Positions 21 to 22,925 of a stretch of DNA of 64,000 nucleotides are shown here, piece after piece. The stretch covers positions 7,257 through 71,256 of the forward strand of contig ONCR01000011.1 of assembly GCA_900316345.1 (NCBI GenBank). The letters run 5' to 3'. Below the pieces are notes generated by a model that worked only from the letters and a program-made list of their open reading frames with translations, ran no database searches and was not told where the DNA came from. Source of the DNA: an uncultured Eubacteriales bacterium (lineage in GTDB: Bacteria > Bacillota > Clostridia > Oscillospirales > Acutalibacteraceae). The first letter of the stretch is position 1. Each line of letters begins with the position of its first letter. Position numbers and translations under genes: made by a program.

Positions 21-2228
21 TCAGATTGCGGTTTTATTAACTATGTTGATTTGGTTTGTGTAAGCGATTCGCAGTCTTCCGTAGGTGTCAAGGTAAGTCA
101 TATAGCCTTTTACCGCCCAGTTATTCTTTCTTGAAAGATTGCGGACGTTAAGGATGTAAAGGCCGCTGTCGCTTACGCCGGGGAACCTTGCGGTTGTAAC
201 CTGATTATTAACAATAAGGTTAACGTCCGTCGGGTCAAATTCGGCAGCGGGGAGCTTGATATAAGCAATACCTATCGTTTCAATTCTGCAGGAGGTGCTT
301 ACGTTTGAAGCCATAATAAATGTTCCCACGGATTCGTTGTTACTGCCGTCGTAAACGTAAGAAAGCGAAAGCGAAGGTGTGTTTACGTCAATCAGAGCAG
401 GAAGCTCCGGAATCTGAACGTCAACCGCGTCATATTCAGGGTAAATATCAATATTATAGCCGTTTTCAAGGTCAATAAAGTTTCTTTCGGTATAAACCCA
501 GCGGCCGTTGGTATAGCCGTATTTATAAGGCACCTTCGGGAACAGCGCCTCGTAATCCTCAACCTCAAGCCAATCGGCGGATGTTTTGCTTATACTTTCG
601 ATTACCTGGCCGCCTTCGCCGCGGAAGGTAAGCGTTGAATAAGTTTTATCAACAGCGATAGCCTTAATATAAAGATTTGACGTTACGGTATATGAGAAGG
701 TTGTTTCGGTTGAAAGGTAGCGTTTAGTATTAACGTCGTACCACGCGATAAAGCGGTGATTGGAATCCGTCTGCGCGGTAAAGGTTACATAATCGCCGAA
801 AAGAACGCGTCCCGTTCCCTCTCCCCTCGTGCCGTCCGAATCAGCAACCGTGGCGGAGCAGCCATCGCCTTCAAGTTGTAAATTGAGATAGGGTTCAAGC
901 ATTGAAAGCTTTGTAAGAATATCCGAAACCTCGCGGTCAATTGCAAACTGGGGATACTGTAAGCTGTCGCCGTCAGAGATGTTTTTATGAAGCTCGGCAA
1001 CGGAGGAAAGCTCTGAAAAGCTTTCTTCGGAATAATCCTCGGGAACAAGCGAGGAATAAAGCTGTTCGGCTTCAACAAGAGCAGAAATATCGTTTTCAAA
1101 ATCCGTTATTTCTCTGTTGCACGAGGTGCAGACCGCCTTATAACTGTCCGTACTGCTTGTATAAACATAATTATCGTTATGAGGAAGAGCAGCGGTTGTT
1201 TGCTGTTCGGTTATGGTTTCGCCGCATACGGAGCAATAGCTTCCCGCGGTTAATCCGGTTGAAGTACAGCTTGCAGGAACGGCGGGAATAACAACCTCTG
1301 TATGGCCGAGCGCGGGAATAGCAGTAAACGAGGAATCACCGCAAACAGAACAATAGTGCTCCATAACGCCGCGCCTTGTACAGGTAGGCTCGGAAAAAAC
1401 CTCATCAACATAAGTATGGCCGAGCGCGGGAATAGTTTCGTTATGAACATCTCCGCAGACCGAGCAGGTAAAGGTATCCGTTCCCGTTTCGGTACATGTA
1501 GGAGCTGCGGTTACCTCTTCGGTATAGTTGTGATGAAAAGCATTGTTGGAATAACAAGGATTCGAAATACGCTCTTCATATCCGTCGATTACATCCTGCA
1601 TATTGCCGAGGAAAACGGTTTCGCCGTTTGTTATATAATCGTTAACCATAGCGTCAACGCTTGTGTCGTCAAGTGTACCGTCGTTGGCCATAACGTCCGA
1701 GCCGGTGTTGATAACATTTTTAACAACGGAAAGCCAATCGCCTGTAAACACGCCGATACCGACCTTTACAGCATTGATAAGCGTATTTGTACTTAACACC
1801 TCGCTGTCGCCCTGGACGTTACGGATTCCGGTATCGCCGCTGAAAGCGTTTTCGTTAATTGAATTTTCCCTTTTAAGAAGATTTGATTGAATTTCTATAG
1901 TATCAACGCTTTTCATATTTGCAAAAACGTAAGCGCCGACGTAATTAACGTCCTCTTCAATAACAATCCTTGTAACGTCCGTTCTTCCGGCAAACGGGCC
2001 TTGGTCGGCTGAGGGATAATCGGGGGTGTTGGCGTTTGATACGCCGTCGCCGCTCAGGTAAAGGATTTTATTATCTTTATCAATAATCCAGTAAGCGGTA
2101 TTTGTTCCGTCGGTTAAAACACCGCGCTGAAAATAGCGCAGCTCATCAGCTGCGGCAAATGCCGAAATACTTCCCGAAACCGTTAATACGAGCGCAAGAA
2201 GAAACGCAATTATTCTTTTATACTTCAT
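21..2228 (-). CDS. Secreted cell-surface protein with a signal peptide, an LRR-like (BspA-type) N-terminal region, three Cys-rich C-x2-C-G...ALGH repeats and a C-terminal beta-rich module
   Basis: ORF 21..2273. The internal Met at 2228 (MKYKRIIAFLLALVLTVSGSISAFA/AADE) follows an AAAGGTGA RBS and gives a classic signal peptide. The motif C-T..G....C-S-V-C-G....IPALGH occurs three times. I recognise no characterised homologue. Confidence 0.75.
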   Translation of the reverse strand: MKYKRIIAFLLALVLTVSGSISAFAAADELRYFQRGVLTDGTNTAYWIIDKDNKILYLSGDGVSNANTPDYPSADQGPFAGRTDVTRIVIEEDVNYVGAYVFANMKSVDTIEIQSNLLKRENSINENAFSGDTGIRNVQGDSEVLSTNTLINAVKVGIGVFTGDWLSVVKNVINTGSDVMANDGTLDDTSVDAMVNDYITNGETVFLGNMQDVIDGYEERISNPCYSNNAFHHNYTEEVTAAPTCTETGTDTFTCSVCGDVHNETIPALGHTYVDEVFSEPTCTRRGVMEHYCSVCGDSSFTAIPALGHTEVVIPAVPASCTSTGLTAGSYCSVCGETITEQQTTAALPHNDNYVYTSSTDSYKAVCTSCNREITDFENDISALVEAEQLYSSLVPEDYSEESFSELSSVAELHKNISDGDSLQYPQFAIDREVSDILTKLSMLEPYLNLQLEGDGCSATVADSDGTRGEGTGRVLFGDYVTFTAQTDSNHRFIAWYDVNTKRYLSTETTFSYTVTSNLYIKAIAVDKTYSTLTFRGEGGQVIESISKTSADWLEVEDYEALFPKVPYKYGYTNGRWVYTERNFIDLENGYNIDIYPEYDAVDVQIPELPALIDVNTPSLSLSYVYDGSNNESVGTFIMASNVSTSCRIETIGIAYIKLPAAEFDPTDVNLIVNNQVTTARFPGVSDSGLYILNVRNLSRKNNWAVKGYMTYLDTYGRLRIAYTNQINIVNKTAI

Positions 2229-2287
2229 AGGAATCACCTTTTTACAGTTTTTCACAAATACATTATATAACATTTCTTATTAAAAGT

Positions 2288-2330
2288 AAAGAAATAAATA
2301 ACCGCTGACGGTAAAGCAACCGACAGCGGT
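2288..2330 (-). terminator. Rho-independent terminator after the V-ATPase operon
   Basis: Minus strand reads ACCGCTGTCGG-ttgcttta-CCGTCAGCGGT (11 bp, one mismatch) followed by TATTTATTTCTTT, directly after the subunit D stop. Confidence 0.55.
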
Positions 2331-2336
2331 GTATTA

Positions 2337-3017
2337 TTAATGAGCAGCTACCTCTTCGTCGTGAGCGATAGCCTTTTGCCTTGCTTCCTCAAGCATCATT
2401 GATTTAACCTTCATAAGCCTTGTTGTTGAGCTTCGCTCATTTTCATCAAGCTTCATAGTTATATACTTTATTGTTTCTTCATAGCGAGGAATCATAACGT
2501 GCTCAAGGGCGTTAACCCTTCTTCTTGTTTTTTCAATTTCAGCCGACATAAGGCGGCAGGATTTTTCAACCTCGGCAAGGCGGAGCATAAGCGGCATAAT
2601 TTCCGAAAGAGCTTTAACCGCATCGTCCAAATCAGACGAGGTAAAGGCATAGCCGTATGAATAAATATCGTTTTCATCAGCAGTTTTGAGCTTTGCGTCA
2701 AACACGGGAAGCATAACGCTCATAACGTTCTTTTCTTCAATTTCGAGCGTCATTTCCTGAGAGGGCATCATAAGCGCAACGTCAAGAGCCGCGTCGCTCA
2801 TAACGGAGCGCGCAACAGCCATATGCTTATTAGCCTCGGTTATTCCCTCTTCAACGCGGCGGCGAAGCTCCTTGTTTTCCCTTACCAAATCAAGAAAACG
2901 GCGCATAAGCTCATCGCGCTTGTCCTTAAGAAGCTTGTGCCCTCTGCGCGCCGTTGTAAGCTTGCGCTTCAGGTTTGTAAGCTCCATTCGGGTTGGATTT
3001 ACATTCATTACTGCCAT
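2337..3017 (-). CDS. ntpD: V-type ATP synthase subunit D
   Basis: N-terminus MAVMNVNPTRMELTNLKRKLTTARRGHKLLKDKRDEL is the typical V/A-ATPase D signature. It is the last gene of the V-ATPase operon. Confidence 0.95.
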   Translation of the reverse strand: MAVMNVNPTRMELTNLKRKLTTARRGHKLLKDKRDELMRRFLDLVRENKELRRRVEEGITEANKHMAVARSVMSDAALDVALMMPSQEMTLEIEEKNVMSVMLPVFDAKLKTADENDIYSYGYAFTSSDLDDAVKALSEIMPLMLRLAEVEKSCRLMSAEIEKTRRRVNALEHVMIPRYEETIKYITMKLDENERSSTTRLMKVKSMMLEEARQKAIAHDEEVAAH

Positions 3018-3037
3018 TTATTTCACCTGATTACAAA

Positions 3038-4411
3038 TCATTTTTCGTCATAGTATTCATCAAGAAGCGTGTCGCTGATACGCTTAAGCTCGCTTCTCGG
3101 GAATATTCTTAACAGCTTCCAGCCGATTTCAAGGGTTTCCTCAATCGTTCTGTCAACATCAAAGCTCTGGTTAACGTATTCCTTTTCAAATTCATCGGCA
3201 AATTTTGCATAAAGCTTATCCATATCGGTAAGCGCGGCTTCGCCGAGAACTACCATTAATTCCTTTGCGTCCTTACCTCTTGCGTAAGCGGAGAAAAGCT
3301 GATTCATGGTATTGGAATGGTCTTTTCTTGTTTTGCCCTCGCCGATACCCTTATCCTTAAGTCTTGAAAGGGACGGAAGAACGTCAATCGGGGGAAGAAT
3401 TCCTCTTCTGTAAAGGTCACGCGAAAGAATAATCTGTCCCTCGGTGATATATCCCGTAAGGTCGGGAATCGGGTGGGTTTTATCATCCTCGGGCATAGAG
3501 AGAATCGGAATCATAGTGATTGAACCGTCTTTTCCCTTCTGCCTTCCCGCTCTTTCATAAATTGAAGCAAGGTCGGTATACATATAACCGGGGTATCCGC
3601 GCCTTCCGGGAACCTCTTTACGTGCGGCGGAGACCTCACGAAGGGCGTCGGCATAGTTGGTGATGTCCGTCATAATAACAAGAACGTGCATTCCCTTGTC
3701 AAACGCAAGATATTCGGCTGCAGTAAGCGCCATTTTCGGGGTTGCAATTCTTTCAATAGCAGGGTCGTTAGCGAGGTTTGAGAACATAACCGTTCTGTCA
3801 AGCGCGCCGGTTTCCCTGAAGGACTGAATAAAGAAATTTGATTCCTCAAAGGTAATACCCATTGCGGCAAATACAACGGCGAACTTTTCATCCTTGCCCC
3901 TTACCTTTGCCTGACGGGCAATCTGAGCCGCAAGCTGTGCGTGAGGAAGACCCGAAGCAGAGAAAATAGGAAGCTTCTGGCCTCTTACAAGGGTATTAAG
4001 GCCGTCGATAGCGGAAACGCCTGTCTGAATAAACTCCTGGGGATATGCTCTTGCCGCAGGATTCATCGGAAGGCCGTTAACGTTAAGGCGCTTTTCGGGG
4101 ATAATTTCGGGGCCGCCGTCGATAGCTCTTCCGAGGCCGTCAAATACACGGCCGAGCATATCTTCAGAAACGCCGAGCTCCATCATTCTTCCGAGGAAGC
4201 GAACCTTACTGTTTGAAAGGTTAATGCCGGTTGAGGGCTCAAAAAGCTGAACAAGCGCATCGCTGCCGTTGATTTCAAGAACGCGGCAACGCCTTGTTTC
4301 GCCGTTTGCAAGCTCAATTTCGCCGAGCTCGTCAAACTTAACCCCTTCAACCTTTCTCACAAGCATAAGAGGACCTGCTACTTCTTCAACTGTTCTGTAT
4401 TCTTTTGGCAT
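3038..4411 (-). CDS. ntpB: V-type ATP synthase subunit B
   Basis: 457 aa with the conserved B-subunit core ([28 protein letters not shown]). It sits between subunits A and D. Confidence 0.95.
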
Positions 4412-6183
4412 CAGAATTCCTCCTTTGCGTTGATAACTTCGTTAATATCGTTTTCTACAAGAGAAACAACCTTTGCATATTCCTCATCAATGCTGTCCTC
4501 GGCAACATACTTGAACCTGCCGATTGCCTCTCTTGACGGGATAGCGACAAGCTTTTCAATATCAGCGTTCATTTCAAGCGCCGCATTTGCTTTATCGTAA
4601 TACTCCATAACAAGAGTCATCATATAATACTGCTTTTTGAGCGAGGTATAAGTGTCAATCTCGTGGAAGGCGAGCTGATGAAGGAAGTCCTCACGGATGC
4701 TTCGCGCAGCCTCCATCTTAAGCCTATCTGTCGCGGAAAGCGCGTCCATACCTACAAGCTTAACGATTTCATCAAGAGAAGCCTCGTCGGAAAGAAGGTT
4801 CATCATTCTTGTTCTGAGCTTCGTCCAATCACTGTTTACGTTATCGTTAAACCATTTGCCGAGATTATCGGCATAAAGCGAATAGGAGGTAAGCCAGTTG
4901 ATAGCCGGGAAATGACGCTTATATGCAAGCGCTGAATCAAGCCCCCAGAAAACCTTTACGATACGAAGCGTTGCCTGGGATACCGGCTCGGAAATATCAC
5001 CGCCGGGGGGCGATACCGCGCCGATAACGGAAAGCGCGCCCTCCTGCGAACCGCTGCCTAAAACCTCAACGCGGCCGGCACGCTCATAGAACTGCGCAAG
5101 ACGGGAGCCGAGATAAGCGGGATAGCCCTCTTCACCGGGCATCTCTTCAAGTCTGCCCGACATTTCACGAAGAGCCTCAGCCCAGCGCGAGGTTGAATCC
5201 GCCATAAGAGCTACGGAATAGCCCATATCCCTGAAATATTCCGCTATTGTAATACCCGTATAGATTGAGGCTTCACGCGCCGCAACGGGCATATCCGAGG
5301 TGTTTGCGATAAGAACCGTTCTTTCCATAAGCGATTTGCCCGTATGAGGGTCAATAAGCTCGGGGAATTCGTTAAGAACGTCGGTCATCTCGTTTCCGCG
5401 TTCGCCGCAACCGATGTAAACAACTATATCCGCCTCAGCCCATTTTGCAAGCTGGTGCTGGGTTACCGTTTTACCGCTTCCGAACGGGCCGGGAATAGCC
5501 GCAACGCCGCCCTTAGCAATCGGGAAAAGCGCGTCAATAACACGCTGGCCGGTAATAAGCGGCATATCGGGAGGGAGTTTCTTTTTATAAGGTCTTCCCT
5601 GTCTTACGGGCCACTTCTGCATTAGCGTTACGTCGTTTACCCTGCCATTTTCGTTTTCAATAGAAGCAATAACCTCAGTTACGGTATAATCGCCTTCGGT
5701 TATTGATTTAACAGCGCCGCTGACGCCGTAGGGAACCATAATTTTATGCCTTACAATATCGGTTTCCTGAACATAGCCGAGCTCGTCGCCTGCGGACACG
5801 CTGTCGCCTGCGCTGACAGTGGGATAGAAATGCCACTTTATGTCCCTTGAAAGCGACGGAACCTCGATACCTCTTTCAAGGTTGTTTCCGCTGAGCTCCA
5901 TAATCTTCTCAAGCGGACGCTGAATTCCGTCAAAAATACCTTTAATCAGGCCGGGACCGAGCTCAACGCTCAGCGGCTCGTTAGTTGATTCTACGGGCTC
6001 GCCCGTGCCGAGGCCTGCCGTATCCTCATAAACCTGAATTGAGGCTCTGTCACCGTGCATTTCAATGATTTCGCCTATAAGCCTGTGTTCGCTTACACGA
6101 ACAACGTCAAACATATTGGCGTCCCTCATATTTTCAGCAACAACAAGAGGACCCGATACCTTTAAAATTGTACCTTTACTCAT
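4411..6183 (-). CDS. ntpA: V-type ATP synthase catalytic subunit A
   Basis: 590 aa with Walker A GPFGSGKT and the motif GERGNEM...[10 protein letters not shown] typical of the A subunit. Its stop overlaps the B start by 1 nt. Confidence 0.97.
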
Positions 6184-6197
6184 ATGTTTACCACCCG

Positions 6198-6518
6198 TTA
6201 ATTTACTATATCAGAGCCTACGGCCCTTTCTACAAATGAGCTTACCTGCTCCATACCTATACCCGTATTTCCGAAAACGCCGGGGATAGGGATAATTGCC
6301 GGAAGAGGCTCATCGTTATATCTGCTGATTTCACTTTGAATTTGCGAAGCAAGATTTTCCGTTATAAAGATTACTGCGTAATCGTTTTCCGCAAGATTTC
6401 TTATTGTTTTAACGGCGTCAATACCGCTTTCAACGGGATATATAACAATACCGAGAGAGGCAAAGCCGTAAATGCTGTTTTTATCGCCTATTGCGGCAAT
6501 TTTATACATAAAGCTCAC
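6198..6518 (-). CDS. V-type ATP synthase subunit F
   Basis: 106 aa ([19 protein letters not shown]...AVIFITE), the typical small F subunit, placed between C and A. Confidence 0.85.
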
Positions 6519-7503
6519 GCATCCTTTCTCTTATTACATCCGTTGAAACATGGCTCTGCTTTGCCGAAAGGATAACGCGAAGGCATTTTACCTCGGTTTC
6601 CTTTGCGCAGTAATAAGCCGCAAGGGGGCTTATTCCAAAAGCAGTCATCTTTGCCTTTTTAACTATTTCAAGCAGCTTATCATCACAGTATTTTTCAAAC
6701 GCCGAGCCGCCTTTTTCAAGCTCTGCACGGTAATCGGAAAAGCCTGTATTAGTAAGATAATCGCAAAACTCCTCCATACCGTCTGCCGCCGCGTTAACAA
6801 AATCGGCCTTTTTAAGCTTTTCGCAGTTTGCAATAGCCATATCAAGATAAACGGAATTCTTGCCCGTTTTAACGGCGCGATATGCCGTTTTAATATTCGT
6901 TGCAACGCAGTATTCCTCGGCGTAATTAATAAGCACGTCGTCGTTACTGCTTTTGGCATAGCATAAAATTGCCTCAAGCGCAGCAGTATCAATTACCGTA
7001 TCGCAAAGCTGCGCTCTTCCGGTTGTTGAAAGAAGCTCAAGCGCCTTTTCGGCACAGCCCGCAGCACATTCCGGAAGCTCGTCAAACCTGCGCTCTGAAA
7101 CGGCCTTTTTTAGCTTTTCTGCGTCAAAAGCGCAGGGCTTTACAAAATAATCATCAGCCGAATGTCCCATAGCCTCAGCCTTAAGAATTGCCTTAAGATT
7201 TTGAAAATCGTTTTTGATAATAAAGGCGTTAAGCGCCTCAGCCTCGGGAGCGGCCTTTTTAATATAATCCCATGCGCCGTTTAGCTCAATATCAAGCGTT
7301 TTTGAATAATTTCCGCCCGAAGGGATATTGTATCCCTTTTCGTTTAAAAGCGTTACCGCTTTTTCATAGCTTTCGGCATTGATAAGCTGTTCAAGGTCGC
7401 TTCGCGTAAGAAGCGAATTTTCAAGCGCACGAACGGAAGCAACTGCAAAAAGATAATCGTTTCTTTTCAATATGCTTCCCTCCTTAACTGAATAAAAGAG
7501 CAT
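6502..7503 (-). CDS. ntpC: V-type ATP synthase subunit C (eukaryotic d-like)
   Basis: 333-aa helical protein in the expected operon position between E and F. It overlaps both neighbours, which suggests translational coupling. Confidence 0.85.
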   Translation of the reverse strand: MLFYSVKEGSILKRNDYLFAVASVRALENSLLTRSDLEQLINAESYEKAVTLLNEKGYNIPSGGNYSKTLDIELNGAWDYIKKAAPEAEALNAFIIKNDFQNLKAILKAEAMGHSADDYFVKPCAFDAEKLKKAVSERRFDELPECAAGCAEKALELLSTTGRAQLCDTVIDTAALEAILCYAKSSNDDVLINYAEEYCVATNIKTAYRAVKTGKNSVYLDMAIANCEKLKKADFVNAAADGMEEFCDYLTNTGFSDYRAELEKGGSAFEKYCDDKLLEIVKKAKMTAFGISPLAAYYCAKETEVKCLRVILSAKQSHVSTDVIRERMRELYV

Positions 7504-8071
7504 TCAGCGCGTCACGCAGCTCGTCACGCTTGGAAGCTGCAATAGCGTCAAAGGAGCAGTTAATATCAATATCGCCGTAAACAAGAACGAAGCCGCCGTC
7601 AGTGTTCGTACTGTCGCCGAGGATAACGCTTTTTCCTTTGCCGAGTTCGCTGTTAACGGAGCTTATAAAATCCTTCGGAAGCCTGTTAACGTCTGAATCA
7701 GAGAGGCGAAGAACGCCCTCCCCTTCCTTGGCATTATTAATAATAAGCGTTTTGATAACTTCAAAATATTCCTTATCGTCAAGCGATTTAATTGAAGCAA
7801 GAGCCTTACCGAGCATATCGTCAATAGTTTCAAGCTTCGCCTTAAGAATAACCTTGCTTTTTCCGAGCTCTGCTGAGGAAACGGCGGACTGTTTAATATC
7901 CTCCGCCTTTTTGGCGGCGTTTGCTTCAGCATTGCCGATTATATTCTTTGCCTGCTCTTCTGCCTTTTCAATAATGCCCTTTGCGTTCTCTTCTGCCTGC
8001 GAAATTATGCTTTTACAACGGTCGTTTGATTCATATTCAATTTGTGAAATAATTTTTTCAAGACCTGTCAT
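7484..8071 (-). CDS. ntpE: V-type ATP synthase subunit E
   Basis: 195 aa with an Ala/Lys/Glu-rich N-terminal coiled coil and a globular C-terminus (GGFVLVYGDIDINCSFD), the typical stator E subunit. Confidence 0.88.
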   Translation of the reverse strand: MTGLEKIISQIEYESNDRCKSIISQAEENAKGIIEKAEEQAKNIIGNAEANAAKKAEDIKQSAVSSAELGKSKVILKAKLETIDDMLGKALASIKSLDDKEYFEVIKTLIINNAKEGEGVLRLSDSDVNRLPKDFISSVNSELGKGKSVILGDSTNTDGGFVLVYGDIDINCSFDAIAASKRDELRDALNALLFS

Positions 8072-8082
8072 ATATTTTCACC

Positions 8083-10534
<2,452 letters not shown>

Positions 10535-10581
10535 TTTGAGCTTTGCCGTAGGTCATCACCCCATTTCCTTTGAAGTGTAGT

Positions 10582-10893
10582 TTACTGAAGTATAATATTT
10601 TTTACTGCGTCAATGGTTTCGCTTAGCTTATCAGAGCTGATTTCCTTCAGCTTTTCAGTATAAGCAAGCGCTTCGTTTTCAGCCTCGGCAACCGAAGAAG
10701 CGGCGTCCTTCTGCGCGCCTTCAACGGTGCGCTTATAGGCGGCGTCTGCCTCTGCCTCTGCATTTGAAACGATTTCCTTTGCCTTGAGGTTCGCGTTTTC
10801 AAGGATTTTTTCTGCTTCAAGCCTTGCGTTTTGCTCGTTTTCAGCGGTAACCTTTTCCTTTTCCAAAACCTCGCTGAGCATATCAGATACCAT
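10582..10893 (-). CDS. Small coiled-coil V-ATPase stator subunit (G/H-like), first gene of the operon
   Basis: 103 aa, Ala/Glu/Lys-rich and predicted to be a single long helix. Position and size match the G-type peripheral stalk subunit; the sequence alone is low-complexity. Confidence 0.6.
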   Translation of the reverse strand: MVSDMLSEVLEKEKVTAENEQNARLEAEKILENANLKAKEIVSNAEAEADAAYKRTVEGAQKDAASSVAEAENEALAYTEKLKEISSDKLSETIDAVKNIILQ

Positions 10894-15282: not shown

Positions 15283-15332
15283 AAAAATAAAAAGACCGAC
15301 TGCAACACTTAAAATAAGAATTGCAGCCGGTC
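15283..15332 (-). terminator. Riboswitch expression platform: intrinsic terminator in the leader of the surface-protein gene
   Basis: Minus strand reads GACCGGCTGCAA (15332..15321), a 15-nt loop, then TTGCAGTCGGTC (15305..15294). This is 12 bp with one G-U pair, followed by TTTTTATTTTT. The 5' arm is the 3' end of the conserved aptamer-like element. Confidence 0.75.
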
Positions 15333-15400
15333 GATCATACAATAAATTGGTTAGACACCTTGCTTTGCGTCACCGCCTTTCGACGGCTTTGCCCTTTAAT
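15321..15400 (-). promoter_or_regulatory. c-di-GMP-I (GEMM-I) riboswitch-like aptamer, copy 1
   Basis: Minus strand reads AUUAAAGGGCAAAGCCGUCGAAAGGCGGUGACGCAAAGCAAGGUGUCUAACC...GAUCGACCGGCUGCAA. It contains the GGCAAA / GNRA loop CGAAAG / GACGCAAAGC core of GEMM-I. It lies in the 5' leader of a surface-protein gene, and a paralogous copy sits 1.2 kb upstream. Confidence 0.8.
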
Positions 15401-16502
15401 CTGATTTTCTTTTTAATTGTTTTTCCTTATACATATTACGGTCCGCGCGTTGAATCAAATCTTCAAACGCTTCGCCGTTTTCCGGAGTTCCCCTCGCCCG
15501 TCCGAAAGAACAGGTTAAGCCTTCGGCTACTCCTTCGATTTTAAGGGAATCCAGGTCATTATGTATTTTGTTTTTTAAGGCTTCAAAATCATAATTATTA
15601 AGCCCTATGTTTATAATTAAAAACTCGTCTCCGCCATAGCGGTAAATATATTTTTCATCAATATTTGCCTTAAAAACATCGGCAATTGAAGCAATAACCC
15701 TGTCGCCGACTATATGGCCGTAGGTATCGTTAATATGCTTAAAATTATCACAGTCACACATAACAAGATAAAGGTGCTTATTGTAATAATTAACGCTGTC
15801 TTCAATAAGCGCATAGCGGTTTTTAAGCTTAGTAAGAACGTCGTATCTTACTGCCCTTTCAAGCGCGGAATTAAGCGAGGCAACCTTTTGGCGGCCCAAT
15901 TGCTGTTTTCGCATAAGGTGATACTTTGCCGAGCTTGCTACAATACAGATACAGGCAAAGGCAAAGAAATTCAGAATATGAATCGATGGCGCTCCGTCGA
16001 AATGAACCAAAACAATGTAACAAACGGTAAACGAAACGGAAAGAAGAATAAGGCTGATATAAGGTTTGATTATTATAAACGCAGCATATGTTACCATTAC
16101 AATATAAAAGGTTATTATATCCTTGCCATAAATATAGTGATTATACGAAAGATAGATGCTGTAAGCAGTAAGAATGGAAAAAGCAATAACCGTAACAACG
16201 GTAATCTTTATATGGGAAACAAATTCATAATTCTTTGCACGTTCAGAATAAAAGTAAAAGAACAAACAGAAAAATACAACAAATGCAACTGACATTGTGC
16301 TTTCCTTTATGTTTCTTACCTGAACAAGACCGGTTGCAACAAAAAGATAAGTAAACAGCTCATAAACTATAACAACTAAAGATATACTGTTAACATTTTT
16401 GATATTAGCTTTGTCCATTTCATTTGTAACACTTAAGGAATCCTTAGGACAGAGTATACTTTTAAGCCAAGATAAAAGATTTTTCATAAATAACCTTAAC
16501 AT
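15396..16502 (-). CDS. Membrane-bound diguanylate cyclase (polytopic N-terminal domain plus GGDEF domain)
   Basis: About 6 predicted TM helices are followed by a GGDEF domain (DVLTKLKNRYAL...DNFKHINDTYGH..GD...RYGGDEFLI...ADRNMYKEK). The start is ambiguous: ATG at 16502 abuts the leader terminator U-tract, and Met-6 at 16487 is the alternative. Confidence 0.9.
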   Translation of the reverse strand: MLRLFMKNLLSWLKSILCPKDSLSVTNEMDKANIKNVNSISLVVIVYELFTYLFVATGLVQVRNIKESTMSVAFVVFFCLFFYFYSERAKNYEFVSHIKITVVTVIAFSILTAYSIYLSYNHYIYGKDIITFYIVMVTYAAFIIIKPYISLILLSVSFTVCYIVLVHFDGAPSIHILNFFAFACICIVASSAKYHLMRKQQLGRQKVASLNSALERAVRYDVLTKLKNRYALIEDSVNYYNKHLYLVMCDCDNFKHINDTYGHIVGDRVIASIADVFKANIDEKYIYRYGGDEFLIINIGLNNYDFEALKNKIHNDLDSLKIEGVAEGLTCSFGRARGTPENGEAFEDLIQRADRNMYKEKQLKRKSD

Positions 16503-16930: not shown

Positions 16931-17443
16931 TTATTCAGCTTTGTTTTTCTTTGATTTAACAATTCTTACAACAAATAAAACAATAATTACGGCAAAAACG
17001 AAATACATTAAAACGGTTTTTACGCTCGTAACCGCAGAAGCAAAGTGAATGAAACCATCGTTTGTATTAATCCCCTTCAACATCATTATTGAGCAGATAT
17101 TTTCGATATAATCAAGAACGGCAAGAACAATCGGGGCGGCAAGAAGAGCCGACCTTTTTTTCATAAGCGCATATACAGCAAAACAGAAAAACAGGCAATA
17201 TGCAATCGGGTAAACAAAATCAAGCGGAAGCTGAACGTGAAGATATGTATTCAGACCTTCGGGAGAAAGCAACGCCAAAAACCGTTTTGCGTCGTCGACG
17301 GAATATCCGAAATTCATATCAAAACAGCGTATTCCCTCGGTTGATTTTTCAATCGACGGAATCAGGACAAGGTTCATTACAAGGCAGATTACAGCCGTAA
17401 CCGCGCCGCTTACAATCAGAACAAGCTTTTCTTTCTTTTTCAT
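16931..17443 (-). CDS. Hypothetical polytopic membrane protein
   Basis: ORF 16931..17503. I prefer the Met at 17443 (MKKKEKLVLIVSGAVTAVICLV...) because the longer form overlaps comFC by 56 nt. It has about 5 hydrophobic helices. No family is recognised. Confidence 0.6.
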   Translation of the reverse strand: MKKKEKLVLIVSGAVTAVICLVMNLVLIPSIEKSTEGIRCFDMNFGYSVDDAKRFLALLSPEGLNTYLHVQLPLDFVYPIAYCLFFCFAVYALMKKRSALLAAPIVLAVLDYIENICSIMMLKGINTNDGFIHFASAVTSVKTVLMYFVFAVIIVLFVVRIVKSKKNKAE

Positions 17444-17447
17444 ATAA

Positions 17448-18158
17448 TCACCTTTTCTTCTTATGTTTGTTTGTAACCGTAAATGCCGCTGTATAAACCG
17501 CATTTGCGCCCGAATCCTTTACGGTAAAGGCAAGCTCGCTTAACGTGCTTCCGGTTGTTTTAACGTCATCAACAATCAACACGGTTTTGTTTTTGACATC
17601 CTTGCCTTCGATAAGGCTGAATGCGCCGTACAGGTTTGCTCTTCTTTCTTTTGCGCTTGATTTTCTCTGAGATTTGGTACGGCGGTTTTTATAAATCAAT
17701 TCGTCAAAAGGCACGCCGAGCCCGGCGGCGGTTTCACGCGCGAGAAGTTCGGACTGATTATAGCCGCGCTTTCTTTTTCTGCTTTTTGTCATCGGCACGC
17801 AGGTAACAACGTCAAAGCTCACGTCCTTAAAACGAAGCTTAACAGCCTTAACAATGTTTTCGCTCATAGCGGGAACAAGCTCCTTAAAGCCGGCGTTTTT
17901 CAGCCTGTAAACCGCTGAAACCGCGCTTCCTTCAAAATAATACGGAGCACAGAATGCCTTATAATCAGGCGAAAACTTTTCAATACTGCAAACGCAGTTA
18001 TTTACCTCGCGGCCGCATTTATTGCAGATTTTCCCTTCAATCATACTCAGGGCTTCGCATTGTTCACAGCGAATTTTATCAAGCTCAATTACTTCGCCGC
18101 ACAGCTCACAGCGTTTCGGGAATAAGACGTACAACAGCCTTTTAACTGCGCCGGTCAT
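17448..18158 (-). CDS. comFC: ComF family protein (ComFC-like phosphoribosyltransferase with an N-terminal zinc finger)
   Basis: An N-terminal C-x2-C...C-x2-C cluster is followed by a PRPP-binding loop VLIVDDVKTTGSTL. It lies next to comEA. Confidence 0.85.
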   Translation of the reverse strand: MTGAVKRLLYVLFPKRCELCGEVIELDKIRCEQCEALSMIEGKICNKCGREVNNCVCSIEKFSPDYKAFCAPYYFEGSAVSAVYRLKNAGFKELVPAMSENIVKAVKLRFKDVSFDVVTCVPMTKSRKRKRGYNQSELLARETAAGLGVPFDELIYKNRRTKSQRKSSAKERRANLYGAFSLIEGKDVKNKTVLIVDDVKTTGSTLSELAFTVKDSGANAVYTAAFTVTNKHKKKR

Positions 18159-18556
18159 ACGGTTAAATACCCTGCTACGGCTTTATAAGTTTCCTCGCCG
18201 AAGCCCTCTATTTCCATAATCTGTTCAACGCTTGTATACTTTCCGATGTGATTACGGTATTCGATAATTGCCGAGGCCTTCTTTTCGCCGAGGTGTTCAA
18301 TAGTCATAAGCTCCTCAAGCGTTGCGGTATTGATATTAAGGGGATAATCGGGAAGCGTTGTTTGCGCTTTTTCGGACTTTGAATCAGCCTTTGAAGCGTT
18401 ATCGCCTTTTGCGTCTTTTTCGGTTGCCGTTACCGCATTTTGCGTGGAATCGGTATAAATACGCGGCTGTGATAAGCCTATGGCGATAAACACCCCTGCT
18501 ATAACAAGCAGAGCGATACCTGTCATTATAAAGCTTTCGCGTTTATTTGTTTTCAT
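18155..18556 (-). CDS. comEA: ComEA-like helix-hairpin-helix DNA-binding protein (membrane anchored)
   Basis: An N-terminal TM helix is followed by a C-terminal motif LNINTATLEELMTIEHLGEKKASAIIEYRN..G.YTSVEQIMEIEGFGEETY, a tandem HhH. Confidence 0.85.
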   Translation of the reverse strand: MKTNKRESFIMTGIALLVIAGVFIAIGLSQPRIYTDSTQNAVTATEKDAKGDNASKADSKSEKAQTTLPDYPLNINTATLEELMTIEHLGEKKASAIIEYRNHIGKYTSVEQIMEIEGFGEETYKAVAGYLTV

Positions 18557-20403
18557 CGTCTTTTGCCTTTTTTGTTATTGGTCTGTCTTGAGTTATGCCT
18601 GCCGTTATTCGGCGACGAGCCCCTTACGAGGCACATATCCCCCGTCCCGATTAAATCATAACGGTGCGCCTTCCTGAGCGCTTCCTCAACAAGCGGCGCG
18701 TTTTTAGGAACATAATACTGTAAAAGCGCGCGCTGAAGAGCTTTTTCATGGGGATTTTTTGTACAGTAAACCTCTTTCATTGTATAAGGGTCAAGCCCCG
18801 TGTAATACATTGCGGTTGAAACTGTTCCGGGAGTCGGATAAAAATCCTGAACCTGTTCGGGACGGATACGGTTTTTCTTTAAAAAAAGCGCAAGCTCAAT
18901 CGCGTCATCAAGAGTTGAGCCCGGGTGGCTTGACATAAGATAAGGAACAAGATACTGGTCCTTATTTGCTTCGCCGCTGTATTCAAAATAACGCCTTGAA
19001 AACTCAATATACGCCTCAATATGCGGCTTGCCCATTTTGTCAAGAACCGCTGCGGAGCAATGCTCCGGCGCAACCTTTAGCTGGCCGCTTACGTGGTACT
19101 TAACCAGCTCTCTGAAAAAGCTTTCATCCCTGTCAAGCATAAGGTAATCATAGCGAATACCCGAACGGATAAACACTTTTTTAACTTCGGGAAGCGAGCG
19201 AACCTCGCGCAGGATTTCAAGATATTCGCTATGGTCGGCGGTAAGATTAGGGCACGGCTTCGGCGCAAGGCATTTTTTACCCTTGCAAAGCCCCTTTTCC
19301 TTTTGCATTTCGCAGGAGGGCTTGCGAAAGTTAGCCGTCGGGCCGCCGACGTCATGGATATAGCCCTTAAAATCGGGAAGCGCAGTCAGAAGCTTTGCTT
19401 CTTCAATTATACTTTTCTTACTTCGTGAGGTAACGTATCTTCCCTGGTGAAAGGCTATTGAACAGAAGTTACAGCCGCCGAAGCAGCCGCGGTTATGGGT
19501 AATGGAAAATTCAACCTCTTTAATTCCGGGAACGCCTCCCTGAGCTTCATACATAGGGTGATACGTTCGCATATAGGGAAGCGAATAGACCTCGTCAAGC
19601 TCTTCTGTAGTAAGCGGAGGCGAGGGCGGATTTTGAATTACCATCAGCTTTCCGTGCTTTTGTTTAATAGCTCTGCCGCGAATATGGTCCTGCTCATCCT
19701 GCTGAATTCGGGTTGCTTTTGCATATTCGGCTTTATTGGCTTTAACGTTTTCATAGCTCGGGCATTCAGTACCTACGTAAGGGGTTTCCCTTACGTCAAC
19801 ACAGTAGGTTGTTCCGAGAATATCGTGAATTTCATTAATTCTTTCGCCGCCGTCAAGCCTGAGAGCAAGCTCCGAAATCTGATGCTCGCCCATTCCCTGG
19901 ATAAGCAAATCCGCGCCGGATTCAACAAGAATGCTCGGCCTTACTGCGTTATCCCAGTAATCATAATGGGCAAAGCGGCGAAGCGAGGCTTCAAGGCCGC
20001 CGATAATAACGGGAACGTCGGGATAAAGCTTTTTAACGGTTTTTGTATAGACGGTAACGGCTCTGTCGGGGCGTTTGCCCGTTTTGCCGCCTGCCGTATA
20101 GGCGTCCGTACTACGGCGTTTTTTAGCGACGGTATAGTGGGCAACCATACTGTCAATATTTCCGCTCGTTATCAAATACGCGAGCCTCGGCTTTCCGAAT
20201 TGAACAAAATCAGCCGCGCTATGCACATCGGGCTGGCTTAGTACGGCTACTTTAAAGCCCTTGCTTTCAAGGACCCTTGTTATTATTGCCGCGCCGAAGG
20301 AGGGATGGTCAACATACGCATCGCCCGTAATATAGACGAAATCGACCTCATCCCAGCCTCTTTGCAGCATATCTTTTTTATTTACGGGAAGAAAGGTATT
20401 CAT
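18553..20403 (-). CDS. ygiQ: YgiQ family radical SAM protein (UPF0313)
   Basis: N-terminus LPVNKKDMLQRGWDEVDFVYITGDAYVDHPSFGAAII and radical SAM cluster C-F-G-G-C-N-F-C. The basic C-terminal tail is typical of the family. Confidence 0.9.
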   Translation of the reverse strand: MNTFLPVNKKDMLQRGWDEVDFVYITGDAYVDHPSFGAAIITRVLESKGFKVAVLSQPDVHSAADFVQFGKPRLAYLITSGNIDSMVAHYTVAKKRRSTDAYTAGGKTGKRPDRAVTVYTKTVKKLYPDVPVIIGGLEASLRRFAHYDYWDNAVRPSILVESGADLLIQGMGEHQISELALRLDGGERINEIHDILGTTYCVDVRETPYVGTECPSYENVKANKAEYAKATRIQQDEQDHIRGRAIKQKHGKLMVIQNPPSPPLTTEELDEVYSLPYMRTYHPMYEAQGGVPGIKEVEFSITHNRGCFGGCNFCSIAFHQGRYVTSRSKKSIIEEAKLLTALPDFKGYIHDVGGPTANFRKPSCEMQKEKGLCKGKKCLAPKPCPNLTADHSEYLEILREVRSLPEVKKVFIRSGIRYDYLMLDRDESFFRELVKYHVSGQLKVAPEHCSAAVLDKMGKPHIEAYIEFSRRYFEYSGEANKDQYLVPYLMSSHPGSTLDDAIELALFLKKNRIRPEQVQDFYPTPGTVSTAMYYTGLDPYTMKEVYCTKNPHEKALQRALLQYYVPKNAPLVEEALRKAHRYDLIGTGDMCLVRGSSPNNGRHNSRQTNNKKGKRR

Positions 20404-22925
20404 TAAATTTCCTCACTACCGTCATAATCGTCATAATCGAAAGGAGCTTCATCGCTGTCAAAGCTCATCTGTTCGGTATTGTCAGCGGTAAATTCGGGCG
20501 CGGGACCGTTGGCCTTCATCTGAATCCACTGTTGCATATTAATTCTGATTTCCCTTGGCTTTGCGCCGTCCTGAGGGCCGATAATTCCCTTTTCCTCAAG
20601 CTGGTCCATTATCTTTGAACCCCTTGAATAGCCGACGCCGAGCTTACGCTGAAGGAAGGAGGTGGAAGCACGTCCGTTTTCAAGAACAACCTCAACGGCG
20701 TTTTCAAATAACGGGTCAAGGCTCTCGCCGCCCTCGTCATCGCCTGACATACCCGAGGATTTATCCTGAACGGCCTTGCTTTCAATTTCCTTCTGAATTT
20801 CATCGCTGTACTGGCTTTCGCCCTGATTTTTAATAAATTCGCAAAGCTTTTCAACCTCTTCATCGCTTATAAAACAGCCCTGAACACGAAGCGGTTTGCT
20901 TGCGCCGATAGGCGAATAAAGCATATCGCCGTGGCCGAGGAGCTTTTCAGCGCCGCCCGTATCAAGAATAGTTCTTGAATCTATCTGAGACGAAACGGTT
21001 AAGGCAATACGTGAAGAAATATTAGCTTTAATAAGACCTGTGATAACGTCAACCGAAGGCCTTTGGGTTGCAATAACAAGATGCATACCTGCGGCACGCG
21101 CCATTTGTGCGAGGCGGCAAATGCTGTCCTCAACCTCTTTAGGGGCGGCCATCATAAGGTCTGCAAGCTCGTCAATACAGATAACGATTTTAGGCATCGG
21201 CTCCATATCGGGGTGCTTTTCAACGAATTTGTTATAGCCCGAAATATCGCGGACGCCCGTATCCGAAAACGCCTGATAACGCTTAAGCATTTCGGAAACA
21301 GCCCAGCCGAGAGCGCCCGAGGCCTTTCTTGCGTCCGTAACAACGGGAACAAGAAGGTGCGGAATGTTTTCATATTTTGAAAATTCAACTTTCTTCGGGT
21401 CAATCATAAGAAACTTAACTTCGTCGGGCTTTGCGCGGTAAAGAATTGAAACGATAATTGAGTTCATACATACCGATTTACCCGAGCCGGTTGTGCCCGC
21501 AATAAGAAGGTGAGGCATTTTTGCAACGTCGCAGAAAACGGTGTTGCCCGCAATATCCTTACCCAGAGCTGCCGAAAGGAGCGAGCTCTGCCTTGAAAAT
21601 TCGGGAGCGTCAATAACCTCTCTTATTGAAACCATATTCTTAACGGTATTCGGTATTTCAATTCCAACGGCCGCCTTGCCCGGAATCGGAGCTTCAATGC
21701 GGACGTTTGTTGCCGCAAGATTAAGCGCAATATCGTCCGAAAGATTTGTGATTTTTGAAATACGTATACCGGCGGCAGGCTTAAGCTCATACCTCGTTAC
21801 CGTAGGGCCTCTTGAAATATCGGTTATTTCAGCCGAAACGCCGAAGGAATCAAGCGTTTTAATAAGAAGCTCGGCGTTGCTTTTAAGCTCGTTGCTTATA
21901 TCCTTTGCGGATTTATGCGCCGCAACCTTAAGAATATCAACCGAAGGAAGCATATATTCGGCAACGGATTTATTCATATCCTCGTCGCTTACACTGAATT
22001 CGGGAAGAGGCTCGTTTTTCTTAGGCTCCTCCTTTTCTTCGCTTGCGTCCTTAATAATTTCATCAAGCGGCTTCGATTTTGCTTTAACGGTTTCGCGCTG
22101 TTCCTGCTTTTGTTTGGTGGATTCGTTGATTTCGCGGATTAAGTCGTCCATATTATCAACAGTCTCGGGCTTTTCGGGAACGCCGTTTTTATTCCTTTTA
22201 GGTTTGGCGTTTTTAGGCTTTGCCTTAACGTCAGTGCCGTCCTCATAGCCGTCAAGATAAACGTCGATATTACGGTTTCTTCTGCGCTCGCGCCTTTCTT
22301 CAATAATCGGCGTGGCCTTTTCAACCGCCCTTTTAACGGGTTTTGCCGTGTTTTTAAAGAACTGATTAACCGTAGCCTTTGAAAGAAGAAGAATATCAAC
22401 AAGCGAAAGAAGAAGCGTAATAATAATTGCAGGAGCCTTGCCCATTGTAAGAAGAAGCCAGCCAATCAGCGCGCCGAAAAAGCCGCCGTTAAACATAAAC
22501 GGGGCGTCGCGGTAAGCGGAGGATAAGGTTTCGCCGAAGGGGCTTCCGCTTGAATTGCGTACAATATGGATAAAAGCCGATGCAAGCAAAACAATAATAA
22601 CAATTAAACAAACCTCAAAGGTCATCCGCTTATTCTTGCTTTTTACGGTAAATAAAAACGAATACGCAAGACAGAGAAGCGGGAATACAACCGCCGCAAG
22701 CTTGCCGAGAAGACCGATATAGAAGTTATGTAAAATCAGCCATAATCCCTCGCCCGAAATGATTGCTATGAAAAAGAACAAAACCGAAAGCGCAAAGATA
22801 ACAATGCTCATTATCCTTGCATTTGTTTCGCTCTTTTCAAGCTCGTCAAAATCGGGCTGACGCTTTGTTTTAGGCTTTGCGGCTGATTTTGCGCCGCTTT
22901 TTTTAGAATTCCTTGAATTAGCCAT
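20403..22925 (-). CDS. ftsK: DNA translocase FtsK/SpoIIIE
   Basis: 840 aa. N-terminal TM helices and a charged linker precede a motor domain with Walker A GTTGSGKS and a C-terminal gamma (winged-helix) domain ASTSFLQRKLGVGYSRGSKIMDQLEEKGIIG. Confidence 0.95.
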   Translation of the reverse strand: MANSRNSKKSGAKSAAKPKTKRQPDFDELEKSETNARIMSIVIFALSVLFFFIAIISGEGLWLILHNFYIGLLGKLAAVVFPLLCLAYSFLFTVKSKNKRMTFEVCLIVIIVLLASAFIHIVRNSSGSPFGETLSSAYRDAPFMFNGGFFGALIGWLLLTMGKAPAIIITLLLSLVDILLLSKATVNQFFKNTAKPVKRAVEKATPIIEERRERRRNRNIDVYLDGYEDGTDVKAKPKNAKPKRNKNGVPEKPETVDNMDDLIREINESTKQKQEQRETVKAKSKPLDEIIKDASEEKEEPKKNEPLPEFSVSDEDMNKSVAEYMLPSVDILKVAAHKSAKDISNELKSNAELLIKTLDSFGVSAEITDISRGPTVTRYELKPAAGIRISKITNLSDDIALNLAATNVRIEAPIPGKAAVGIEIPNTVKNMVSIREVIDAPEFSRQSSLLSAALGKDIAGNTVFCDVAKMPHLLIAGTTGSGKSVCMNSIIVSILYRAKPDEVKFLMIDPKKVEFSKYENIPHLLVPVVTDARKASGALGWAVSEMLKRYQAFSDTGVRDISGYNKFVEKHPDMEPMPKIVICIDELADLMMAAPKEVEDSICRLAQMARAAGMHLVIATQRPSVDVITGLIKANISSRIALTVSSQIDSRTILDTGGAEKLLGHGDMLYSPIGASKPLRVQGCFISDEEVEKLCEFIKNQGESQYSDEIQKEIESKAVQDKSSGMSGDDEGGESLDPLFENAVEVVLENGRASTSFLQRKLGVGYSRGSKIMDQLEEKGIIGPQDGAKPREIRINMQQWIQMKANGPAPEFTADNTEQMSFDSDEAPFDYDDYDGSEEI

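Follow-up and report, generated by a model that had tools for sequence, protein, structure and literature searches.

A predicted class I c-di-GMP riboswitch between a diguanylate cyclase gene and the gene of a giant, probably secreted protein in an uncultured clostridial bacterium

The stretch of DNA considered here (the window, 64,000 nucleotides (nt) of a contig from an uncultured Eubacteriales bacterium) carries an apparent operon. In the order of its reading, this consists of a promoter, a riboswitch for cyclic dimeric GMP (c-di-GMP; riboswitch 1), the gene of a membrane diguanylate cyclase with a GGDEF domain, a second riboswitch (riboswitch 2), the gene of a giant protein (the cargo), a small open reading frame (ORF) and a closing terminator. 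All elements of the operon lie on the minus strand, and positions are given in the numbering of the window. Riboswitch 2 is the main subject here. The segment 15283-15403 very likely comprises an entire class I c-di-GMP riboswitch, which serves the operon as an internal, conditional terminator of transcription.

RNA elements were sought in the whole window with the covariance models of Rfam 15 at curated thresholds. Three matches exceeded them, two c-di-GMP-I aptamers and one transfer RNA (tRNA). The riboswitch 2 aptamer (15403-15319) matched the c-di-GMP-I model RF01051 with 68.7 bits and an expectation value (E) of 2.3e-11, covering the model over its full length (positions 1-87) at about twice the curated cut-off (gathering score 35). 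The junctions GGCAAA and GACGCAAAGC are present in it and are invariant across the aligned aptamers. The first hairpin is capped by a GAAA tetraloop of the GNRA type (15381-15378), and the second carries a receptor-like UCUAA...UAUGA, aligning to the consensus CUAA...AuGa; the GNRA tetraloop together with the receptor motif places the predicted aptamer in the type 1 architecture. According to the consensus alignment, the equivalents of G20, A47 and C92 of Vc2 are G 15393, A 15366 and C 15323, in the numbering of the Vc2 structure. The TAA stop codon of the cyclase gene (15398-15396) falls within the first 8 model positions of the aptamer, 2 nt 5' of the G20-equivalent. As judged from every in-silico feature of membership, riboswitch 2 is a genuine class I c-di-GMP riboswitch, and its predicted identity is far beyond chance. 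The aptamer class is already known and routine, and is findable by any Rfam-based annotation.

The expression platform (15332-15283) was delimited by folds, coordinates and the conservation of its arms. The last 13 nt of the aptamer, GACCGGCUGCAAU (15332-15320), are complementary to GUUGCAGUCGGUC (15306-15294). The resulting terminator hairpin pairs GACCGGCUGCAA(U) with (G)UUGCAGUCGGUC through 12 pairs including one G-U, or 13 counting the terminal U-G; in the fold, this stem of 13 base pairs (bp) is topped by an inner 4-bp stem. The U5AU5 tract UUUUUAUUUUU (15293-15283) stands directly 3' of the stem, and it is followed by the Shine-Dalgarno sequence AGGAGG (15280-15275) and the ATG of the cargo gene (15266-15264), both read from the sequence (15280-15264 together). 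The 13 shared nt comprise the basal 3' strand of the P2 helix, the C92-equivalent and the start of the 3' strand of P1. An earlier note on this DNA had described a GEMM-I element at this place, with the cyclase TAA in its 5' flank and a 12-bp hairpin followed by a U-tract, AGGAGG and ATG, and had made the identification depend on a covariance-model hit. Its quoted minus-strand sequence (15410-15260) reads as given, the hit was obtained at 68.7 bits, and both the hairpin and the order of the elements are borne out by the coordinates.

The riboswitch 2 region folds with -46.1 kcal/mol (z = -4.6 relative to shuffled sequences). The terminator conformer has a minimum free energy of -41.7 kcal/mol versus -28.1 kcal/mol with the Rfam aptamer structure enforced, so that termination would be the default state. 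One strand serves both as 5' arm of the terminator and as 3' strand of the aptamer; terminator and ligand-bound aptamer should therefore exclude each other, with termination blocked once the ligand binds. A separate anti-terminator was not found in the folds of riboswitch 2 and is not required, and pairing of the Shine-Dalgarno sequence with aptamer sequence was not seen in any fold. The terminator stem shares nucleotides with the aptamer, as it does in transcriptional ON riboswitches of the Bc2 type. This sharing of an arm supports the gating that the earlier note implied, and riboswitch 2 is most likely an ON switch, with both the binding of c-di-GMP and the sign of regulation in vivo predicted from the structure.

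Orthologous loci, referred to here by L numbers, were first found through the cargo protein: L001 (Ruminococcaceae bacterium UBA3751, Oscillospiraceae), L002 and L003. The cargo proteins of L001 and L002 are 80% and 72% identical to that of the window, and the DNA of L003 is 99.4% identical to it. The riboswitch 2 aptamer was found in all three with 63.7-69.4 bits; riboswitch 1 and the tRNA are present as well wherever the contig extends far enough. The coding DNA of the window is 78% identical to that of L001 and 73% to that of L002. In both comparisons, the aptamer core is identical at 68 of 73 positions (93%) and the 5' arm of the terminator at 13/13, the 3' arm being identical at 13/13 and 12/13, respectively. 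The hairpin loop agrees at 12/13 positions in L001 and at 4/13 (31%) in L002. Relative to L003, 72/73 aptamer bases and 26/26 bases of the terminator are the same. Covariation was analysed on 11 aligned aptamers, 10 of them distinct, from the window and related cassettes. Standard pairs are formed in 94.5% of the helix cells, versus 18-50% in controls with the 3' partner shifted by 1-3 columns, and compensatory changes on both sides occur in 7 of the 20 helix pairs. The predicted helices of riboswitch 2 are supported by covariation, with the loop free to vary.

The two aptamers of the window differ more than the earlier note had held, which allowed for only two core differences. Their cores are identical at 59 of 74 positions, with six differences outside the distal hairpin (G/C at column 17, A/G in GACGC, a T indel, A/T, T/C in UAUGA and U/C in GGCUGC). 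In the lineages of the window, L001, L002 and L015, the riboswitch 1 copies resemble each other, and so do the riboswitch 2 copies. The copies thus cluster by their position in the cassette, which argues for an old duplication of the riboswitch. The locus L017 is an exception, its two riboswitches being closer to each other than to their positional counterparts elsewhere.

The operon promoter (16675-16648) consists of TTGACA, a 16-nt spacer and a TG-extended TATAAT, which agrees with the consensus at 12/12 positions and is kept in L001 and L003. Counterparts were found 5' of riboswitch 1 in L013, L015, L016 and L017. Upstream of it lies a tRNA-Leu(UAG) gene (16865-16784) with its own terminator (16777-16756), by which the operon promoter should be insulated from upstream transcription. 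The riboswitch 1 aptamer (16633-16546), located in the 5' leader of the GGDEF gene, matched RF01051 with 57.2 bits. Its terminator (16557-16505) was deduced from the fold and the coordinates: the aptamer's 3' strand supplies the 5' arm CCGGCCGCAAA, and U5 follows the 3' arm UUUGCGGUCGA. The arms are kept in L001, where the upper stem differs. Riboswitch 1 appears to share the ON logic of riboswitch 2, from which it is separated by 1143 nt with the cyclase ORF between them.

The membrane diguanylate cyclase gene (16502-15396) was assigned by the Pfam family PF00990 (GGDEF, 1.4e-30), NCBIfam, hydropathy and the motif. The protein is predicted to have 5-6 transmembrane or hydrophobic helices and a GGDEF domain, with the intact GGDEF motif expected of a diguanylate cyclase at residue 290. 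An RxxD I-site was not found in the window cyclase, in which these positions read IDEK, nor in any cassette cyclase examined. The ATG at 16502 lies 2 nt 3' of the U-run of riboswitch 1 and is without a Shine-Dalgarno sequence. The ATG at 16487, with AAGG 6 nt upstream, agrees with the start called in homologues; it is probably the real start, which would give a protein of 363 amino acids (aa) rather than 368. At the other end of the gene, the location of the stop codon inside the 5' flank of the aptamer leaves no intergenic space for a promoter. The cyclase gene of L003 carries a 1-nt deletion in an A-run (L003 ~1120-1165, corresponding to ~15560 of the window); as called, it encodes 319 aa and leaves a gap of 124 nt to riboswitch 2.

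The cargo ORF starts from the ATG at 15266 and reads 1216 codons (15266-11616), containing a signal peptide, two copies of a domain and a long C-terminal region. The closest database proteins and full-length relatives have 1368-1369 aa. A blastn comparison with the 99.4%-identical L003 showed that the window is without 64 nt (L003 5066-5129) at the junction 11625|11624. The deletion shifts the cargo frame, and the 1216-aa ORF is therefore a truncation. It takes out 21 conserved codons and detaches the conserved C-terminal ~130 aa, which persist as an out-of-frame 3' remnant (11624-11221, with the displaced C-terminus in the ORF 11607-11221). A flanking repeat was not found at the deletion, which could be either real, making the cargo a pseudogene, or a fault of the assembly. 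Both near-identical strains carry one broken part of the operon, the cargo in the window and the cyclase in L003.

The earlier note had spoken of a secreted surface protein of 1216 aa belonging to no known family. The codon count is correct for the ORF, though not for the intact protein, and the disruption of the gene had been missed. The absence of a family is confirmed, for neither the cargo nor its full-length homologue matched any in the Pfam or NCBIfam scans. Secretion is supported by a typical signal peptide, MKKLTKKAFALLMSIVMVLTALTVFPFTASA/DS, at the N-terminus. The surface part of the description fared less well: an LPXTG motif with a hydrophobic segment and a charged tail was found neither in the last 60 aa of P0001 nor in 155 family members, and no wall-binding or anchor domain was matched in Pfam. 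The terms surface protein and adhesin can serve as candidate labels only.

A domain of ~320 aa at residues ~30-345 (15179-14232) recurs in the cargo at residues ~380-720 (14141-13107). Its profile retrieved 414 representative clusters among 1.84 billion proteins, all of them in proteins of about 0.9-3.2 thousand aa. Signal-peptide-like N-termini were found in 146 of the 155 retrieved family members and LPXTG in 0/155; some members also contain BspA-type leucine-rich repeat, fn3 and Ig domains. A first structure model of the domain from 8 sequences was unusable, with a predicted local distance difference test score (pLDDT) of 55. An AlphaFold model based on 25 diverse members reached a pLDDT of 85 and a predicted template modelling score of 0.81; it suggests a three-helix bundle, a large beta-sandwich and C-terminal helices. 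In a Foldseek search, the PDB matches to this model were all weak and of a generic beta-sandwich kind (pilins, chaperones and lectin domains, TM score <= 0.26) and BFVD gave none, and no fold was assigned. A metagenome scan for further orthologous loci yielded one contig, which starts inside the gene and is without the leader.

Searching with the cyclase instead of the cargo was the most informative step, and it revealed further cassettes, a recurrence that the earlier note had also missed. The layout of promoter, riboswitch 1, membrane GGDEF cyclase without an I-site, riboswitch 2 and cargo is kept down to 35% cyclase identity. The same layout with the same overlap was found in L001, L002, L003, L011, L015 and L016; in L011, L015 and L016, riboswitch 2 overlaps the cyclase stop codon as it does in the window. 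In L011 (cyclase 66% identical), both riboswitches are present and the cargo is a 1368-aa protein with a 39-aa ORF. In L015 and L016 (cyclase 46% and 44%), the same two riboswitches precede genes for a 202-aa protein, an S26 signal-peptidase homologue, a 1332-aa VWA/Cna_B protein and a SpaA-type LPXTG pilin. In L013 and L014 (cyclase 52%), riboswitch 1 is present and riboswitch 2 is not, and the cargo comprises a Cna_B protein, a SpaA pilin and a sortase; their cyclase-cargo spacer of 74-110 nt contains no aptamer and no terminator, and in L013 no degenerate aptamer was detected even at E <= 10. In L017 (GCA_015066525.1, cyclase 35%), riboswitch 1 is present, riboswitch 2 begins 43 nt after the stop codon, and the cargo consists of two small ORFs. 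L018 (cyclase 29%) has neither riboswitch, and its surroundings are unrelated. A consensus promoter, and a terminator sharing sequence with the 3' strand of the aptamer, accompany each copy of riboswitch 1 that was examined.

The cyclase gene and riboswitch 2 of L002 (24-1243) are 90% identical in DNA to L015 5984-7201 and L016 6058-7283. This identity stops 6 nt before the cargo start; beyond that point the cargos are unrelated, with the giant protein in L002 and a sortase-pilus operon in L015 and L016. Between L002 and the window, the cyclase proteins are only 46-47% identical, though the cargos are 72% identical. The riboswitch 2 terminator and Shine-Dalgarno sequence bound the breakpoint on its 5' side, and the first cargo codon bounds it on its 3' side. 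This pattern of identity indicates that cassette and cargo have probably recombined at the junction of the riboswitch and the ribosome-binding site.

Transcription most likely begins at the promoter 16675-16648 and would run via riboswitch 1 and the cyclase gene to riboswitch 2. A consensus promoter was seen here only 5' of riboswitch 1; a conserved promoter was not found in the 3' end of the cyclase gene, where a scan candidate (15586-15558) is not conserved. At low c-di-GMP, most transcripts would end at riboswitch 1 and the few that pass it at riboswitch 2. Without c-di-GMP, GACCGGCUGCAAU would pair with GUUGCAGUCGGUC and the transcript would stop at the U-tract as a cyclase-only messenger RNA (mRNA). 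With c-di-GMP bound, the strand would be kept in the aptamer, no terminator would form, and RNA polymerase would continue into the cargo gene and the 39-aa ORF. If the membrane cyclase is active, a rise in c-di-GMP would open riboswitch 1 further and lead to more cyclase, with no I-site as a brake. With the ON logic of riboswitch 1 and a cyclase without an I-site, self-amplification of the signal would be expected of the cassette, and the cargo would be released only once c-di-GMP has risen. Positive feedback and any bistability are predictions from this logic.

Three things suggest that the cyclase and the cargo are co-transcribed: no intergenic space is left for a promoter, no conserved promoter was found, and in L013 the cyclase and pilus genes follow each other without an intervening riboswitch or terminator, so that co-transcription is implied there. 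Several observations weigh against this reading or against a working gate at riboswitch 2. The P1 helix of riboswitch 2 is short, with ~4 A-U or G-U pairs. The last 60 nt of the cyclase gene contain a weak promoter-like site (TTCAAC, a 17-nt spacer and TATAAG; 15454-15426), a better version of which is present in L002 and L015 (TTGAAA, an 18-nt spacer and TATAAG). The 17-nt block GACCGTAATATGTATAA (15426-15443) is the sole run of at least 9 nt that is invariant among three cyclase genes whose proteins are 46-66% identical. Riboswitch 2 of L017 has its own consensus promoter, TTGACA...TATAAT, in the spacer between the cyclase stop and the aptamer (L017 4690-4733). The frameshifted cargo may make the output defunct in the window. 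Finally, riboswitches were not found at the distant cargo homologues L004-L009, and riboswitch control is therefore not general to the cargo protein family.

These promoter-like sites are the ground for a different view, in which the cargo has its own promoter in the last ~60 nt of the cyclase gene and the two genes form separate units, each switched on in parallel and not in series. It would agree with the promoter of L017, with the good -35 box of L002 and L015, and with the position of the TATAAG box (15431-15426), which sits 26-38 nt 5' of the G20-equivalent inside the only run kept among the three diverged genes, much as the -10 box of riboswitch 1 lies ~25 nt upstream. However, the site in the window agrees with the consensus at only 8/12 positions, has no TG extension and was not listed by the promoter scan. 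The conserved block encodes ADRNMYK, and four identical codons in a row are expected about once per gene at 32% codon identity; GACCGTAATATGTATAA may be an embedded promoter or a coincidence with this motif. In L013, moreover, cyclase and cargo are joined with no signal between them. The TATAAG candidate and the separate promoter of L017 weaken the case for co-transcription, and a separate promoter in the window is nevertheless rather unlikely. The block GACCGTAATATGTATAA holds a TAATAT box besides TATAAG, the two lying 26-45 nt 5' of the aptamer; the statistics of this are weak.

It is possible, though doubtful, that riboswitch 2 is intact yet idle, its cargo being a pseudogene and the element heading to decay. 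The loss of 21 conserved codons and of the conserved C-terminal ~130 aa would fit this, as would the 1-nt cyclase deletion in L003, which leaves one broken part in each of the near-identical strains. On the other hand, riboswitch 2 shows no degenerative change relative to L003 (aptamer 72/73, terminator 26/26), assembly errors could account for either lesion (the deletion of 1 nt falls in an A-run), and expression of the 1216-aa fragment and of the small ORF would still be possible. An OFF or translational switch, by which c-di-GMP would lower cargo expression, has a precedent in the class I riboswitches of C. difficile that acted as off switches (PMC6200980). For riboswitch 2 it is very unlikely, as the terminator 5' arm and the aptamer 3' strand are the same and mutually exclusive, no separate anti-terminator was found, the Shine-Dalgarno sequence is unpaired with aptamer sequence in all folds, and the identical logic was experimentally ON in Bc2 (PMC4933901). 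Sensing of another dinucleotide, such as 3'3'-cyclic GMP-AMP (3'3'-cGAMP) in the manner of GEMM-Ib, is still more improbable and hardly to be expected. Such a reading draws on the common fold of c-di-GMP-I aptamers and cGAMP variants. The cGAMP-selective variants carry A at the G20 position, but the G20-equivalent is G in all 11 aligned aptamers (column 11), and the neighbouring gene encodes a GGDEF cyclase with the canonical motif.

A c-di-GMP-responsive ON terminator in series with riboswitch 1 is thus the preferred reading of riboswitch 2. A wider proposal, which can be held only tentatively and is more probably wrong than right, sees it as the output gate of a 'latch', a portable cassette (promoter, ON riboswitch, cyclase without an I-site, ON riboswitch) that has been repeatedly recombined in Oscillospiraceae. 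As part of the same tentative proposal, the cargos of the latch would be the giant secreted protein, sortase pili with VWA/Cna_B tip adhesins, and Cna_B adhesins. If this holds, feedback and serial gating would give all-or-none adhesive structures, resembling phase variation without a change of DNA. The aptamer-terminator at the 3' end of the cyclase-only mRNA might then also stabilise this transcript.

The closest functional analogue is Bc2 of Bacillus thuringiensis BMB171, a class I ON switch with a terminator before the collagen adhesin gene cap (PMC4933901). Both systems have a class I aptamer, a terminator just before the ORF, a bound aptamer that serves as the anti-terminator (predicted here), and as cargo a large secreted or surface protein of a Firmicute. 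Bc2 lies in a normal 5' untranslated region with its own promoter, whereas the aptamer of riboswitch 2 begins at the stop codon of a cyclase gene that is apparently itself under riboswitch control; and unlike Cap, the cargo has no recognisable adhesin domain or anchor. The prototype GEMM-I riboswitches Vc2 and Vc1 of Vibrio cholerae belong to the same family, RF01051 (PMC4744006, PMC11705072). They have in common with riboswitch 2 the junctions GGCAAA and GACGCAAAGC, the tetraloop and receptor, and the G20, A47 and C92 positions, but they precede gbpA and tfoY and are not terminator-coupled in the same way.

Clostridioides difficile, likewise of the Clostridia, uses terminator-type c-di-GMP riboswitches for adhesins, pili and surface proteins (PMC6200980, PMC6366702). 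There, class I elements act as OFF switches, and the switches that turn on adhesins and pilA1 belong to class II (PMC6200980), in contrast to the class I ON switch predicted here. The earlier note had drawn this contrast; it is accurate for that species (PMC6200980), but it is not general, since Bc2 before cap is of class I and ON (PMC4933901). A class I ON switch before a large adhesin is therefore documented, and the present arrangement is less unusual than had been implied.

Tandem c-di-GMP riboswitches are also known, from the triple tandem Bc3-Bc5 (PMC4759541) and a survey of contiguous riboswitches (PMC12452182). The likeness lies in at least two complete c-di-GMP-I riboswitches with their own terminators in series, from which a sharper response is expected. 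The known tandems are contiguous in one leader, whereas here the riboswitches stand 1143 nt apart with a 1.1-kb cyclase gene between them, and the first gate would also govern the synthesis of the ligand. A limited literature search yielded no account of ON riboswitches on both sides of a cyclase; this does not prove that none exists.

Riboswitch 2 is ordinary in itself, and the interesting part is the architecture of the surrounding cassette: an intra-operon aptamer at a stop codon, putative ligand-induced synthesis of the ligand, exchangeable adhesin and pilus cargos, and an unannotated family of giant proteins. The c-di-GMP biology of uncultured gut and rumen Clostridia is largely unexplored, and the cassette is a candidate for a compact c-di-GMP circuit in these bacteria, in which a ligand-induced cyclase is combined with a ligand-gated output. 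For the unannotated family of ~414 clusters, it offers a functional lead, as sister cassettes put pili and Cna_B adhesins in the same slot. The cassette could also be regarded as a natural two-threshold c-di-GMP reporter or actuator for synthetic biology.

Directly 3' of the cargo lies an acidic small ORF of 39 aa (VKKKYIEPELNIDKF...EEIEF; 11206-11087) with its own AAGGAGG. It was called as a gene in L002, L003, L005-L009 and L011, with homologues at L002 5370-5486, L005 8875-9012, L008 5384-5524, L009 4996-5100 and L011 11341-11460. The family comprises proteins of 38-46 aa that begin with M[KR]K.Y.EPE[LF]... and have an acidic C-terminus ending in EIEF or D.FG, and no family was found for it in the Pfam and NCBIfam scans. 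The small ORF adjoins the giant gene even in ~30%-identical homologues that share the C-terminal ~90-aa domain. Its YxxPxL motif is reminiscent of leader motifs of ribosomally synthesised and post-translationally modified peptides (RiPPs). A lasso-type RiPP precursor was considered and rejected: the homologues have no acidic residue at core positions 7-9, and there are no maturation genes nearby.

The operon is closed by an intrinsic terminator read from the sequence (11024-10989), with the 11-bp stem UGCAGAGGGAG/CUCCCUCUGCA followed by U7. Its 3' flank is occupied by a V-type ATPase operon on the same strand (subunits I, E, C and A among others; 21-10893). The 5' flank (16931-22925, minus strand) contains ComF-like, ComEA-like (HHH), YgiQ-type radical SAM and FtsK genes. 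L011 has these genes upstream as well, which places the cassette in a conserved chromosomal neighbourhood beside tRNA-Leu.

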